A stretch of 49,890 nucleotides of DNA. Origin: Escherichia phage Henu8. The notes beneath the pieces were generated by a model that was not told the origin of the DNA, did no database searches, and was given only the letters and a program-made list of their open reading frames with translations. The translations under genes were made by a program, and so were the position numbers. The DNA lies in sequence record NC_049853.1; one strand, written 5' to 3'. Each line of letters starts with the position of its first letter. The first letter of the stretch is position 1. Below are positions 30,586 through 39,359 of this stretch, piece by piece.

Positions 30586-30891
30586 ATGGCTGAATATGGT
30601 GTTTCAACGTGGGATGCTAACGGGAAGTATAACAACTACGGAATCAAGCCAGTTTCCGTTGTTGGTGTCATTAGCCTTGCCGCTGGTCAGACAAGCGGAT
30701 CGTGGAGCTTTAGCATTCCAAGTGGTTTTAAGGTTGGGTATGTTGTTTCACTTGATGAAGGTGCCAGGGGAGTTGGAAGGGAAATAGTAGCATCTGGAAA
30801 TACAATAAGAATTAATCCTACATCGTCAATTGGTGCAAATAGGTATTCTTCTTCAAAGTGCGAGTTAGTTGTTTTTCTTGAGAGGGTTTAA
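30586..30891 (+). CDS. hypothetical tail-associated protein, MAEYG paralogue 1 (101 aa)
   Basis: Trimmed to ATG 30586 (GGAGG SD); N-terminus MAEYGVSTWDANGK. Confidence 0.5.
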   Translation: MAEYGVSTWDANGKYNNYGIKPVSVVGVISLAAGQTSGSWSFSIPSGFKVGYVVSLDEGARGVGREIVASGNTIRINPTSSIGANRYSSSKCELVVFLERV

Positions 30892-30892
30892 A

Positions 30893-31534
30893 ATGGCTGA
30901 GTATGGAGCAATGTTATCTTTATCAAATGGGAATCCATTTGTCACACCAAAATCAACGCCATTTTGCTTATATGGCAAGTACACTTATTCATCTTCAGGT
31001 ACTTCTGCCTATCATAGTGCAAGCGCAAATATACCAGTAAACCAATCTTATCCATGCATGGCATTTATAAAAACAACAAACACACAGCAGCCAACTGCAT
31101 TAATAGCTTACAGGAATGGTGGCAACATTTATGTAAACGGAGGCAATCCATACGGGCAATCATTTACAATGACTGTTTATATATTTGCCATATTCCCTCA
31201 AACTCTACCCAAATATGGTATGGCTATATGGGATGCAAGCGGAAAGTTGGTTTTAACTAATGAAAGCAGGGTGCTAACAGATCTTGTTACAATTGGTACT
31301 CCTGGTTCTTCAGGTGGAACGAATATAGATCAAACGTTATCTGGTTCTTATGCCGTTTGCCCTTCAAGGCTTGGTGCGGTTATAGGTATGGGCGCTTCTG
31401 ACATATATACATCATGCAGGTATAATGGTTCAAGCACAAGGATCGGTGCAGCAAGGACAACGCCAGGAACAGGTTCTATAACAAATAACGGAAATTCAAT
31501 AATTGCAATAAAGACTGATATTTACGACCAATGA
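30893..31534 (+). CDS. hypothetical tail-associated protein, MAEYG paralogue 2 (213 aa)
   Basis: Trimmed to ATG 30893; N-terminus MAEYGAML and internal KYGMAIWDASGK repeat matching paralogue 1; Ser/Gly/Thr/Asn-rich. Confidence 0.5.
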   Translation: MAEYGAMLSLSNGNPFVTPKSTPFCLYGKYTYSSSGTSAYHSASANIPVNQSYPCMAFIKTTNTQQPTALIAYRNGGNIYVNGGNPYGQSFTMTVYIFAIFPQTLPKYGMAIWDASGKLVLTNESRVLTDLVTIGTPGSSGGTNIDQTLSGSYAVCPSRLGAVIGMGASDIYTSCRYNGSSTRIGAARTTPGTGSITNNGNSIIAIKTDIYDQ

Positions 31535-31566
31535 AAAAAGGGGCTTTCGCCCCTTTGTTTTTATTT
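31534..31566. terminator. bidirectional rho-independent terminator between convergent genes
   Basis: A-run, GGGGC-TTTC-GCCCC hairpin, T-run. Confidence 0.65.
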
Positions 31567-31792
31567 ACAGACTGCAATCAGCGTTTTTAAAGTTATCAAT
31601 ACTTACCCACTGAAAATTAAACGGATAGCCAGCCTTAACAAGAGTGCGTTCGCCAACTCGCTTTACTCCAAAAATAGCAACTGAATACTGCATACCGCTA
31701 TTTTCATAAATAGCCGTGCATTCACGCTTAGGCATATTTGCACATCCAGTCAGGGCAATGGCTGCAATCAAAACGGCGATTAACTTTTTCAT
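31565..31792 (-). CDS. cor: Cor-like superinfection-exclusion lipoprotein
   Basis: 75 aa; MKKLIAVLIAAIALTGC signal peptide plus lipobox; GAAGGAG SD; convergent with tail genes and driven by its own promoter. Confidence 0.55.
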   Translation of the reverse strand: MKKLIAVLIAAIALTGCANMPKRECTAIYENSGMQYSVAIFGVKRVGERTLVKAGYPFNFQWVSIDNFKNADCSL

Positions 31793-34462: not shown

Positions 34463-34915
34463 ATGCATATTATTACTGGTGAGATCCGAAAAGAGCCGCG
34501 AGTAAAGCAAATGCCTAACGGCAGCACACTTTATGTGGTTGAACTTTCAGAGCGATACAAAGATAAAGATGGAAACTGGCAATATACAAACTACAGTTTC
34601 TTTTTTAATGCCAAAACAGAAGGTCTTAATGGTTGGTATGCTGAGGCGTTCCAGGTTGGCAAGGTTATTTCTGTATCTTGCGACACGCTGCGCATTGAGA
34701 CGCGTGAATATAACGGAAAGATGTATTCAAGTTTAATGCCAGGAGGATTTGCAAATCTTATCTTCAGTCAGCGCGGGGAAAGCCAGCAACAATATCAGCA
34801 GCGAACGCAAGGAGGATGGGGCCAACCACAACAACAGAATCAACCGCAACAACCGCAACAGCCAAGACAAAGCAATCAGCCTCCTATGGACTTTGACGAC
34901 GACATTCCTTTCTGA
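34463..34915 (+). CDS. ssb: single-stranded DNA-binding protein
   Basis: 150 aa; Gln/Pro/Gly-rich linker and acidic C-terminal tail DFDDDIPF typical of bacterial and phage SSB. Confidence 0.85.
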   Translation: MHIITGEIRKEPRVKQMPNGSTLYVVELSERYKDKDGNWQYTNYSFFFNAKTEGLNGWYAEAFQVGKVISVSCDTLRIETREYNGKMYSSLMPGGFANLIFSQRGESQQQYQQRTQGGWGQPQQQNQPQQPQQPRQSNQPPMDFDDDIPF

Positions 34916-34945
34916 TCAACAAAGGGGCATTACGCCCCTTTTTCA
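34915..34945. terminator. bidirectional terminator between convergent ssb and minus-strand cassette
   Basis: A-rich, AGGGGC-ATTAC-GCCCCT hairpin, T5. Confidence 0.6.
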
Positions 34946-35187: not shown

Positions 35188-35223
35188 TTGCTTTTCCTTC
35201 AGGAGTTGATTGCTGTTATGGCA

Positions 35224-35313
35224 TTACAGGCCACCAACAGCACCGCCAAGACCAGCCGCGCCAGCTTCGCCACCAAAACCACCACCAGTAGGGAGTAAAG
35301 TCATATCTGACAT
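35224..35313 (-). CDS. Gly/Ala-rich small peptide (29 aa)
   Basis: Manual: minus ATG at 35313 with AGAGGAA SD 7 nt upstream; MSDMTLLPTGGGFGGEAGAAGLGGAVGGL; below ORF-track cutoff. Confidence 0.45.
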   Translation of the reverse strand: MSDMTLLPTGGGFGGEAGAAGLGGAVGGL

Positions 35314-35452: not shown

Positions 35453-35484
35453 GACGAAAAAAGGCGCAGCCTAAACCGCGCCTT
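35453..35484 (-). terminator. rho-independent terminator after tail fibre gene
   Basis: Minus strand: AAGGCGC-N10-GCGCCTT hairpin followed by T-run. Confidence 0.65.
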
Positions 35485-35498
35485 GTGGTTATTTTTTG

Positions 35499-37799
35499 TT
35501 AACTCTCAAGAGTTGTTGGCTTGTTGATCAATGCAGAAACAACCGCTTTCAGTTCTGCAACCTCCTTTTCAAGTTTGCTTATGCGATCATCGCTTTCACG
35601 GCACACTTTCACCAGCAATCCAGTAACAGCGCCATAATCAACAGATAAGAATCTTTCCTCGCCAACTAACTGATTTCCATCCTTAGTTGGACCAGCAAGA
35701 TCCGTGTACTGAGTGAATCCGCCAACCGCTTCCGGTATTGCCTCCATTACTTCTTGAGCAATTACCCCAGCATAAGGTAAACCATTCTCCTTAAGCGTGT
35801 AAGTGTATCCGCTCATTTTGCGCAATGATTCAGTTGCGTTCTCAATCTCCTCAATGTTGTCCTTAAGATCTCTGTCAGATGCTTGATTGAATGCTGTCGC
35901 ATTTACATGGCCGTTAACTTGAAGATACTTTGAGTTATCTTTATTTAACTGACAGTAAAAACCCCACCCAGGGCCGTTATCGAAAGACCACTCAATAACT
36001 GACGGTCGATCGTTACCGTTCCCCCACAATGAGAAGGTTGCAGGATTTGATGAGTTACCATCATTAAGCATTTTGAAATACTTGCCACTCGGTCGGTCGA
36101 TCTCCAAGCTAGACGCCTGGATATATGCTTTTCCCGCAAAGTTCTTAGTCCCCAGCACAACCCCGTCGGTGTGCAATTCAACCTTAGAGGACGTAATATC
36201 GTTCAGGAACAGTGCGCTAGTACCGGTGTCCTTCCCTAAAAACCAAAGACGTGTTCCTGCTGAGTTGTACCCTGTTACGTGCAGTGGTTGGTTGTTTGTT
36301 GACGCTGTTCCGTCGATCCGGAAGCCACCATTAGCGGTTGTAACTTTAATGCTGGGTACGGTCATAGCAAATGTGCCACTGGCTGCAAGACCGTTATACG
36401 CGATCAGCTTGTTGTCATATGCAATCTCACCATTGTCCCTTAATTGCAAGAATTTATTAGATACTGAGTTGGAAACAGATACATCATTAGGCCATGTGCG
36501 AAGAACTGCGCGCTTTCCGTTCCCTCTAGCCTCCACCGAAGAGCCAGCAACAACATTGTTACCAATAATTTCACCACCAAAAGAAACGTCTCCGCCTGGA
36601 GTGAGTAACATGCATCTTTTGATCAGCGCTGAATTGTTTCTATAAGAATAGATCGCGTAATTCGGGCCATAAAAGCCAGCCCTAAAACCAGGTTGACCGT
36701 CAGCGGATAGGTAAACAGTCCAGCAACCACTACTAGATTCATCCGACGAACGTTGAATTTTTACCGCGTCTTGACTTCCTTTGAATAATTGAGAGCCAAC
36801 AAAAGTGTTTGAAACATTTAGACCAGGAGCATCAAGATTCTTTCTTGCTCCAGGAGCATTTTTCGCACCTGTTCCACCTTTATTTATTGGCAAAGCTACA
36901 TCAGATTTCGATGTAGAATCCCACATCCCCCAATCGCCATTATTTTTTACGAAAATCCGCTTTGTTCCATCAGCACTTGAAACAACAGTTTCACCATTTA
37001 CATCATTGCCTTGCAATAATCTGTCTACGCTTAGGTTTTTTCTTGCTTCACCTTTATCTTCGACATCGCTAAGGTTGTTGTTTTTGTTAAGAATATTTGC
37101 AGGATTTATGCTATCTGCATATTCTTTCGCCTTATCTTCAGAAGCCTTAGCGGCATTTTTTGAATCCAGAGCATCAGAAGCAGATCTTGCAGCTTCGCTC
37201 TTGCTTGCATTGGCTGAATTCTCTGAATTTTTGGCATTTGTCTCCGACGTCTTTGCTGCATTCTGAGAAGCGAGCGCAGCATCCTGAGAATTTTTAGCGG
37301 CATTCTTGCTTGCATTGGCTGCATTTTCAGATGCTTTAGCGTTAGTCTCCGATGCTTTAGAGTTTGTCTCCGAAGTCTTTGCGGCGGCAGCGCTTTGTTT
37401 TGCTGATTCAGCGCCTTGCTTGACTTGATTTACAAGATCTTTCAATCCTTCAAGATCAAAGTCTCTAAAAAATTCAATTGCATCCGCGATCTCTGTTTCT
37501 TTGCTTTGATAGTAACGCAATGTTTCAGCTACATCTTGAGCAAGACCATCAACAGTTATTGAGTCATGAAGTAAGATCGCGTAATTTGAACGGGTAACTA
37601 CCGCGCCACCAGTTGTAATTGCACGAATGCTTGTATCGTTAATAACTTCAGTTATCACGGCAATCTGCAACGGCTGAGTTAAAAATACAATAGTTGCACC
37701 AGGGCGAATGAGCGTTAGTTGCTCTCGCCATTTTGTGTCGTATCCAGTGATATAACCTTGCGCGTCCATTGACGCTTGTCCTGTTCTGTAAATTGCCAT
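35499..37799 (-). CDS. tail fibre protein with C-terminal intramolecular chaperone (S74-like) domain
   Basis: Trimmed to ATG 37799 (GGAGA SD); Ala/Ser/Asn-rich tandem repeats ([22 protein letters not shown]...); C-terminal [15 protein letters not shown]...[17 protein letters not shown]. Confidence 0.75.
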
Positions 37800-37860
37800 G
37801 CGCTTTCTCCAATGTTGCATGTTAATGTCAATGAAGATAATAGCATTTGCTAAGGCCAAA

Positions 37861-37883
37861 AAAAACCCCGCAATGCGGGGTAA
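37861..37883 (-). terminator. rho-independent terminator after primase gene
   Basis: Minus strand: CCCCGC-ATT-GCGGGG hairpin followed by T8. Confidence 0.65.
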
Positions 37884-37897
37884 AGTAGCAGTGACAT

Positions 37898-38830
37898 TTA
37901 GAGAATTGATTCAGGTTTGAAAACCTTCCTCTCTATCCCTTGCCTGTAATTATCATTAATCGGCATCATAATTTCAAGACCTCTTTCCTCTGCGGCAATG
38001 ATAGCGTCACGATCTGTGCTCTTACAGACAACTCGCATTCTTCTGTTGCCTTTATACCTGTAAGCCACAATCTCAATGTTAGTCGCATCAAAGCAGGCCC
38101 AAACCTCTTGACCAGTTGCAAGGTGAATATGTTGCGCATCAATCCAGTCAACGCAAAGATAGATAGTCTTATCTGTGCTTCCTGTTCTCACAACCGACCC
38201 GCGCGTGTAATCCTTAGCGAGAAAAGATTTATTTCCTTCTTCATCAATGAAAAGCACATTGCACATTTCATCATCAATCTCATCTGAGTGTACCAGGTAA
38301 CATGGCAACGCGTGAATGTATCGACCATCTTTAACGCCGCATTCATAATAACCATCTTCAGGCGGATATATCCCTTCATATGTACTTAACGGCGTGCGAT
38401 CAAATTTTAGTGTTTTTGACATAACGCGCTCGCAGCATTCATGGCTTGCCTGTTTCCCAAACGAATAACCAGAATCACGAGATACTCGCTTATTTGCCTT
38501 GATCCTATAGTCCTGAGGAACTTTTCCAAGAAAGCGGCCCAAAATATTGATCACTTCGCCGTAAGGTTCTCCGGTTAGCTTCATGATCCAACCAATTCCA
38601 GTATCGTTTCCGCACACATTGCAGATAGCGCCGCCGTCGCCTTTTTTATCTCCAAGTTTATCAGTCCATCTAAAGCGATCCTTTCCGCCGCAGTGTGGGC
38701 AAGATTGATGCTTGCCGTTAAAAACTTCATTTGGAAGACCGCAAATACTTTGTAGCGCCTCACGCCATAATCCCTGCATATATGGGAGAACATCTTCCTT
38801 TTGATAAACCATAAAGTTTTCGTTGTTCAT
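37898..38830 (-). CDS. putative DNA primase (zinc-ribbon)
   Basis: Trimmed to ATG 38830; CPHCGG...CNVCG zinc ribbon near N-terminus; position adjacent to the helicase. Confidence 0.5.
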
Positions 38831-38885
38831 ATGCACCTCAAACAAAAAAGCCTGACAGATGATAACATCATGCCAGGCATTGTTT

Positions 38886-39359
38886 TTAGCAATTAGTGCT
38901 TTCAGGTTTATACAGGAATCCGCCAGGCTCATAATCTGACATTCTTACCACTCGCAACATTTCACGCTTATCACATCTCTTTGTGAGCGGTTTGCCATTG
39001 GAATCAAATCGCAGATCTGGACGGCAGAATGACGCGCGATAGCCTTGACAGCCATACTTTTTGTAATCGTTATGCACCTTTTGAGCGCCAGCGGCTGAAA
39101 TCATACCGCGAACTCGCCACTGATTTACAGTTTGCTGGCTAACGTTAAGACGTTTTGCCATTGCTGACACACTTCCGTAATACTCAATAAGGATGTCAAG
39201 TCTCGCTTTTAGTCCGGCGCGCACTTCATCTTTTAAAACATAGTATCCAGTAGGGCGCTTGCGCTTCTTCTTATCTTTACCCCGTCGAGTTCCGTTATTG
39301 CCATTAATTGTGCGCTTGTCAATCTTGCCAGTTGATACTGCGATTCGCTGTTCTTTCAT
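38886..39359 (-). CDS. HTH DNA-binding protein
   Basis: 157 aa; GGAGA SD; helix-turn-helix-like AKRLNVSQQTVNQW; basic Lys/Arg-rich N-terminus. Confidence 0.55.
   Translation of the reverse strand: MKEQRIAVSTGKIDKRTINGNNGTRRGKDKKKRKRPTGYYVLKDEVRAGLKARLDILIEYYGSVSAMAKRLNVSQQTVNQWRVRGMISAAGAQKVHNDYKKYGCQGYRASFCRPDLRFDSNGKPLTKRCDKREMLRVVRMSDYEPGGFLYKPESTNC

Follow-up and report, generated by a model that had tools for sequence, protein, structure and literature searches.

A minus-strand fibre gene between ssb and primase

In the genome of Escherichia phage Henu8 (NC_049853.1), a long minus-strand gene lies between a plus-strand ssb gene (34463-34915) and a minus-strand primase gene (37898-38932). 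Its features are collected in Table 1, with positions counted along the window, by which we mean the whole 49,890-nucleotide stretch of DNA that was analysed. Henu8, with a 49,890-bp genome, has been placed in Hanrivervirus (Drexlerviridae, Tempevirinae), and the published annotation carries the gene as ORF51, 'Tail fiber protein', minus strand, 35,499-37,820, 773 aa; its best match in the Henu8 gene table is JLBYU41, at 61.2% (PMC12210894). GC skew is negative over 35-39 kb, consistent with coding on the minus strand. Two plus-strand reading frames (36073-36645 and 36805-37266) run antisense inside the gene; judged by eye, they are by-products of a repetitive, compositionally biased coding strand and were discarded.

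Table 1. Features of the Henu8 fibre locus; positions refer to the window and residue numbers to the 766-aa product.
Feature	Position	Strand	Basis
Probable lateral tail fibre gene (Henu8 ORF51), 766 aa plus stop	35499..37799	-	ORF list, PHROGs match, Henu8 gene table
Shine-Dalgarno sequence GGAG, 7-nt spacer to ATG 37799	37807..37810	-	sequence reading; kept in 6/6 aligned phages
N-terminal virion-anchor domain, aa 1-124	37428..37799	-	DpK2 match; 93-97% nucleotide identity to Hanrivervirus relatives
Heptad-repeat rod, aa 128-232, 15 heptads, consensus A-S-E-N-A-A-K	37104..37418	-	lag-7 test, DNA repeat spacings
Linker/shaft, aa 233-414	36558..37103	-	ARKNL motifs at aa 252 and 318; DNA repeat D5
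Beta-rich distal region (probable receptor contact), aa 415-640	35880..36557	-	AlphaFold2 sub-model, fold matches
Peptidase_S74 intramolecular chaperone domain, aa 641-766	35502..35879	-	Pfam match, conserved Ser641/Lys646
Intrinsic-terminator hairpin, CCCCGC-loop-GCGGGG then T8	37865..37881	-	terminator scan; -15.3 kcal/mol, z -3.0
Candidate extended -10 element TGCTATTAT	37837..37845	-	conservation in six phages
Intrinsic-terminator hairpin, 15 nt past the fibre stop	35461..35484	-	terminator scan; -16.2 kcal/mol, z -2.9

The ORF51 protein matched 48 PHROG families at E ≤ 0.001, and the best 25 of these 48 all fell in the tail category, mostly as tail fibre proteins. The tail-fibre families gave a best E of 6e-93 and covered stretches from aa 1-131 to aa 1-228. 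A first-pass annotation of this DNA had described the gene as a tail fibre gene on the opposite strand inside the replication module, about 5 kb away from the main tail gene block. [quoted passage not shown] The same order of ssb/recombination genes, minus-strand fibre gene and primase was found in T1, JLBYU41, JLBYU09, damhaus and JLBYU26. In T1, the minus-strand gene ST26 ('tail fiber protein') is flanked by the primase and by ST27, which takes the place of ssb, and terminators are annotated there as well; T1 differs by an extra small ORF, ST25, between primase and fibre. Furthermore, the BASEL phage-collection paper (S1C Fig) describes a hypervariable lateral-fibre locus that is conserved at its 5' end only. 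The placement is thus the norm of the family and not a peculiarity of Henu8, and ORF51 has both the position and the strand that mark Drexlerviridae lateral fibres.

PHROG families, the Henu8 gene table and synteny across the family agree on a tail fibre, and we consider it highly probable (roughly 0.88) that ORF51 is the lateral (side) tail fibre of Henu8, a T1-like siphovirus. This mainly confirms the existing annotation: the gene is annotated in the published genome, and its unusual position, its hypervariability and its S74 domain were already documented as traits of the family. The details added here are the location of breakpoints in the coil, the variation of coil length by whole heptads, an extended -10-like motif that is conserved, and the lack of any sign of a depolymerase domain.

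Start codon and transcription signals

The longest minus-strand frame extends from the first TTG (35499-37859, 786 aa). This TTG start at 37859 was dropped because it sits at the end of the T-run of the upstream terminator, and the published 773-aa start at ATG 37820 was dropped because it is not conserved, being absent from JLBYU26 and A16a in an alignment of six phages. The arrangement GGAG-N7-ATG 37799 was common to all six, and DpK2, a homologue of solved structure, likewise begins MALYR. The 766-aa start was preferred on account of the conserved ribosome-binding site and ATG 37799, the unconserved ATG 37820 and the MALYR start of DpK2, and from the sequence 37799 rather than 37820 is likely to be the true start codon.

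The gene had also been described as bracketed by its own terminators. Indeed, a hairpin was found at either end, each about 3 standard deviations more stable than shuffled sequences. The upstream hairpin (37881-37865) separates the stop codon of the primase from the fibre start and ends the regulator-primase transcript; its stem and T-run are kept in the six phages, and its loop differs in the divergent JLBYU26 and A16a. The downstream hairpin has a 10-bp stem with 6 GC pairs, followed by a T-run.

Directly after the upstream terminator stands AAATGCTATTATCT, which contains TGCTATTAT, similar to an extended -10 element. Its flanks diverge, but AAATGCTATTATCT itself does not vary among the six aligned phages. 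A scan for promoters with the two-hexamer sigma-70 consensus came up empty between the upstream terminator and the start codon; the nearest minus-strand match, at 37977-37949, is within the primase gene and upstream of the terminator. TGCTATTAT has a single exact copy in the whole window and is thus not recognisable as a shared late-promoter motif. A dedicated promoter for the fibre gene at TGCTATTAT is a reasonable inference from this conservation. Upstream primase terminator, extended -10-like motif, ribosome-binding site, reading frame and terminator would then make up a transcription unit of the fibre's own. Such a separate unit, with a promoter and a timing of its own, may allow a virion protein to be made from within a run of genes for DNA metabolism.

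Anchor domain and heptad-repeat rod

The protein begins with the conserved virion-attachment domain characteristic of Drexlerviridae lateral fibres, which is beta-rich in the AlphaFold2 model and would dock the fibre on the tail. Among 30 aligned proteins, this anchor measured 124 aa in 22 (ORF51 included), 147 aa in seven and 114 aa in one. A homologue of solved structure is DpK2 of Klebsiella phage RAD2, a member of Drexlerviridae (7LZJ, 7VYV, 7VZ3). DpK2 is homologous to ORF51 over aa 1-174, a stretch that takes in the anchor and the first part of the coil (E ~1e-60), and it matches the tail appendages seen on RAD2 virions (PMC8552709).

Behind the anchor, the Ala/Ser/Asn-rich repeats that had been noted at about 37100-37420 proved accurate, and they resolve into 15 heptads at 37104-37418. 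Ser occupies position 2 in 13 of the 15 heptads and Ala position 6 in equally many. Self-identity at lag 7 was 0.449, compared with 0.157 in shuffled sequence (z 8.6; a value reached by none of 5000 shuffles), and lags 14, 21 and 28 gave peaks as well. At the DNA level, Tandem Repeats Finder returned just 2.1 copies of a 21-nt unit (37330-37373), because the DNA repeats are degenerate, at 69-80% identity. The repeat was therefore demonstrated at the protein level and with seeded DNA repeats; the seeded search recovered degenerate direct repeats of that identity over 37134-37385, with spacings of 21, 42, 63, 105 and 147 nt, all of them multiples of 21 nt.

AlphaFold2 predicted aa 117-229 as one long helix, which would give a rod of ~16-17 nm (113 residues at 0.15 nm each). 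In the equivalent part of DpK2, the cryo-EM density contains an extended N-terminal triple-helical bundle (PMC8552709). With this model and this analogy, a trimeric coiled coil is the natural reading of the rod: three chains would assemble into a trimer, and the ~15 heptads of aa 128-232 would form its alpha-helical shaft.

It had been proposed that the number of fibre repeats be compared among related phages. In the 30 aligned proteins it varied, and nearly always in whole heptads: the segment aligned to aa 125-243 mostly had a length divisible by 7 (77, 91, 98, 112, 119, 140, 182, 189 or 203 aa). Five lengths were exceptional (49, 90, 97, 107 and 111 aa), four of them not multiples of 7.

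Linker and beta-rich distal region

The full-length AlphaFold2 monomer had a mean pLDDT of 55.9, too poor for a fold search, and was used for the layout of helices and strands only. Confidence was low over aa 233-414. By comparison, aa 415-640 modelled alone gave an all-beta structure with a pLDDT of 86.6. Among predicted viral structures, the best fold matches of this sub-model were tail fibres, T4-type gp37 distal fibres and chaperone-domain proteins, with E from 4e-6 to 1e-3. A Foldseek search against the PDB returned no solved structure at E ≤ 0.001 and no beta-helix enzyme. The top PDB matches were OspA and CPAP, both extended beta proteins of a single layer, and the fibres T7 gp17 and T4 gp34, at a TM of ~0.2; homology to these four was rejected, and the match was read as that of an extended chain belonging to an intertwined trimer.

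These results bear on whether ORF51 could be an enzymatic tailspike, a polysaccharide depolymerase like DpK2 and the source of the Henu8 halo. The Henu8 paper reports a narrow plaque halo and counts ORF51 as one of three depolymerase candidates (PMC12210894), and over its N-terminal 174 aa ORF51 shares ~70% identity with the DpK2 depolymerase. The halo could point to some enzyme among the virion proteins. However, the similarity stops at aa 174, so that anchor and coil are all that the two share. DpK2 continues into a 10-rung beta-helix hydrolase (residues 317-642) and a beta-sandwich C-terminal domain, whereas ORF51 continues into a fibre-like beta region and an S74 domain. Pfam found no enzymatic domain in ORF51 at E ≤ 0.1. 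Of the ~400 aa between coil and S74 domain, the well-modelled aa 415-640 form a beta-meander that matches gp37-type fibres and not the right-handed parallel beta-helix with a catalytic site that marks depolymerase tailspikes; aa 233-414 are poorly modelled, and a small unrecognised domain could lie there. The S74 domain itself is uninformative on this point, since it is present on fibres and spikes alike. With the DpK2 match ending at aa 174 and neither an enzymatic domain nor a beta-helix seen, a depolymerase role is quite improbable, and ORF51 is unlikely to be the depolymerase sought by the Henu8 authors.

C-terminal S74 chaperone domain

The first-pass annotation had assigned the C-terminus to the self-cleaving intramolecular chaperones of phage fibres and tailspikes and had named an HMM search as a check. 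The search detected Peptidase_S74 (Pfam PF13884) at E 1.2e-13 and 51.6 bits (curated cut-off 22); the match spans aa 641-692 and profile positions 1-57 of 58. The domain opens S641-D-R-D-L-K646, with Ser and Lys five residues apart in the Ser-x4-Lys spacing of the catalytic pair, and S641, D642, L645 and K646 are conserved at ≥90% among 30 homologues. The region can be aligned to two self-cleaving domains, those of MYRF (7DC3) and S16 gp37 (6F45), and S641-DRDL-K646 falls on the SDRRIK motif of S16 gp37 and on the MYRF site. Chaperones of this family end in a long helix, which forms the central coiled coil of their trimer. In ORF51 the domain makes up the last 126 residues, within which AlphaFold2 placed a helix at aa 722-759 with low pLDDT (~35-61); because the full-length model is poor in the S74 part, at a pLDDT below 50, the S74 fold is read from the amino acid sequence.

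The founding proteins of this chaperone family, T5 pb1 and K1F endosialidase, have a C-terminal domain of 126-134 aa that starts with Ser-x4-Lys as in ORF51, and they have no detectable similarity to ORF51 outside it. In T5 pb1, Ser1264 and Lys1269 cleave the Thr1263-Ser1264 bond after the trimer has folded (PMC4690869). By analogy, the S74 domain of ORF51 would, as an intramolecular chaperone, drive the folding of the trimer and would then cut itself off at Ala640/Ser641 by means of Ser641 and Lys646. The predicted products are a mature chain of 68.2 kDa and a released chaperone of 13.8 kDa.

Mosaic structure of the fibre gene

Outside the fibre gene, Henu8 is closely related to other sequenced phages. 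The backbone (window 11000-35000) is 97.4% identical to JLBYU09 and JLBYU41 over 100% of its length, and 97% identity to JLBYU09 extends over 26 kb. At the megablast level, by contrast, no phage record covers 80% of the fibre gene. JLBYU09 is collinear with Henu8 at 96-97% on both sides of the gene but has nothing that corresponds to window 35549-37292, owing to an internal deletion in its fibre gene.

Nucleotide identity changes along the gene. The 5' end resembles the backbone, at 97% to damhaus over aa 1-142, 97% to JLBYU09 over aa 1-169 and 93% to JLBYU41 over aa 1-190. Farther on, aa 308-414 are 94% identical, and to damhaus only, and over aa 416-692 the identity is 79-81%, to JLBYU41, JLBYU26, A16a and welsh, a Dhillonvirus phage. 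At the 3' end, the final 50 nt together with the terminator return to 98% identity to JLBYU09. The distal part is thus itself a patchwork of segments. Homology to the backbone breaks off at aa 142, 169, 169, 184-200 and 190, and all five breakpoints are within the heptad-repeat DNA. This indicates an exchange of distal modules, across family lines too, on an anchor that remains part of the backbone.

The gene had been suggested to be an independently exchangeable receptor-binding cassette. Exchange is supported by these comparisons, but the exchanged unit does not run from terminator to terminator: the first 142-190 codons remain backbone-like (93-97%), and the distal part alone is swapped. 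Diversity would arise by intragenic recombination, mainly in the coil DNA, which would swap distal modules among Drexlerviridae and with Dhillonvirus fibres and alter the length of the rod by whole heptads. Taking this further, the heptad-repeat DNA (37104-37418) could be the recombination joint of the family, at which homologous but slippery 21-nt repeats allow modules to be swapped in register between Drexlerviridae and Dhillonvirus and set whole-heptad rod length, with the terminator and extended -10 pair insulating the timing of expression. It would refine what is known of modular fibres, and we advance it as a tentative proposal that may well prove wrong. If it is true, the terminator/extended -10 pair would give any incoming module the right expression timing.

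Relatives of the distal part include the Dhillonvirus fibres (welsh gp11, Gluttony and PC2), to which ORF51 is 56-62% identical at the protein level over aa 300-757 and 79% identical at the nucleotide level over aa 416-692. The Dhillonvirus anchor differs from that of ORF51, being 147 aa long, and in welsh the fibre gene is on the strand of the tail genes, directly after the gpJ, RBP and exclusion genes. The ORF51 allele is a new combination; its best full-length matches are 61-69% identical.

A rival reading is that ORF51 is a decaying remnant, no longer made or used, as in JLBYU09. The sister phage JLBYU09 has a broken copy, the BASEL paper reports lateral fibres to be dispensable on rough laboratory strains, and 1.43 kb has been lost just downstream of the fibre gene in the window; the three genes that follow the fibre in relatives and are absent from Henu8 gave no Pfam matches. 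In Henu8, however, the 766-codon frame is intact, the ribosome-binding site, the terminators and the catalytic Ser and Lys are conserved, and all domains are full length in comparison with 29 homologues. With frame and signals preserved in this way, a dead gene is hardly credible.

Role of the fibre in host recognition

As a lateral fibre, ORF51 would make the first, reversible contact with the host, its beta-rich distal part (to aa 640) touching a surface glycan. [quoted passage not shown] The receptor-binding role put forward by the first-pass annotation is upheld in so far as ORF51 is a host-recognition fibre; by analogy with the family, it is a lateral fibre for reversible contact and not the terminal receptor-binding protein.

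A terminal role would mean that ORF51 triggers irreversible adsorption and DNA ejection and alone sets the host range. Of all the virion genes it varies the most, in a genome that is otherwise 96-97% conserved, as would be expected of a host-range determinant. Yet the BASEL paper maps terminal receptor specificity in this family to small genes that directly follow the gpJ homologue, beside the superinfection-exclusion gene, and Henu8 has this locus at 30586-31792, downstream of its gpJ-like gene and including Cor (PMC12210894). In addition, the close relative JLBYU09 was isolated on K-12 despite its deleted fibre gene, which we count as support for the fibre being dispensable on rough K-12 strains. 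Given this locus and a viable fibre-deleted relative, it is very unlikely that ORF51 is the terminal receptor-binding protein, and by analogy that protein would be the product of a gene that directly follows the gpJ-like gene and neighbours Cor.

The lateral fibre reading is in keeping with the known fibres of this kind. T1 ST26 and SH6 ORF54 share with ORF51 the slot, the strand, a conserved anchor and a hypervariable remainder. SH6 ORF54, the positional counterpart on the minus strand and the second fibre of its phage, also has an S74 domain, was found in virions by LC-MS/MS with 42% coverage and is a chimera of T1virus and Hk578virus (now Dhillonvirus) (PMC5238451). Lateral fibre alleles are of help in predicting the O-antigen or LPS types that are within reach of a phage in therapy, a use that has been proposed for Henu8. 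For the engineering of fibre swaps in T1-like phages, a rod length quantised in heptads and breakpoints placed in the coil should be useful. T5 pb1 is likewise a lateral siphovirus fibre for reversible glycan binding, with 1396 aa and a bullet-shaped tip.

Start site and upstream region of the fibre gene

In the published Henu8 annotation, the lateral tail fibre gene (ORF51) starts at ATG 37820, which gives a protein of 773 aa. JLBYU26 and A16a lack this ATG, whereas all six phages of the upstream alignment keep a GGAG-N7-ATG arrangement whose ATG lies at 37799 in Henu8 (site 37797-37820). Further upstream, the segment that directly follows the primase terminator (table) was invariant in 6/6 phages while its flanks diverge, and it contains TGCTATTAT, an extended -10-like motif with a single occurrence in the window.

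Matches to the Henu8 fibre/primase region included the records labelled 'Campylobacter phage' A16a, A15b and A118. The A16a record (MG065636.1) is flagged UNVERIFIED, and Campylobacter as its host looks doubtful because the phage is classified under Hanrivervirus and has the same order of genes as Henu8 around the fibre gene.

Length variation in the fibre protein

Coil length was taken as the segment aligned to aa 125-243 of the fibre protein in an alignment of 30 homologues. Segments of 77, 91, 98, 112, 119, 140, 182, 189 and 203 aa, all whole heptads and frequently 21 aa apart, were found, with five exceptions to these lengths (49, 90, 97, 107 and 111 aa). In JLBYU09, the nearest backbone relative, the lateral fibre gene (JLBYU09 positions 36928-37774) carries an internal deletion and is annotated as two fragments; what remains is only ~aa 1-193 plus the C-terminal 76 aa. 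Such a deletion fits with the lateral fibre being dispensable on rough K-12 hosts.

Region downstream of the fibre gene

Directly downstream of the fibre gene, ~1.43 kb is absent from the window compared with JLBYU09, JLBYU41 and damhaus, in which it comprises three small minus-strand genes. The deletion junction lies near 35227-35234, at the short direct repeat GGCCTG. A Pfam search with the three lost proteins gave no match. JLBYU09_64, the 234-aa protein whose stub is listed in the table, is both Gly-rich and Cys-rich.

The hairpin beyond ssb (folding energy -13.6 kcal/mol, z -4.1) looks like a two-way terminator serving both flanking genes. In phage T1, a terminator is annotated on each strand at the equivalent spot, after ST27, the gene in the ssb position.

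Coordinates of sequence features on either side of the fibre gene
Feature	Position	Strand	Remark
AAATGCTATTATCT	37832-37850	minus	directly after primase terminator
Gly-rich 29-aa ORF MSDMTLLPTGGGFGGEAGAAGLGGAVGGL	35223-35312	minus	stub of JLBYU09_64
GC-rich hairpin	34921-34941		between convergent ssb (+) and 85-aa ORF (-)
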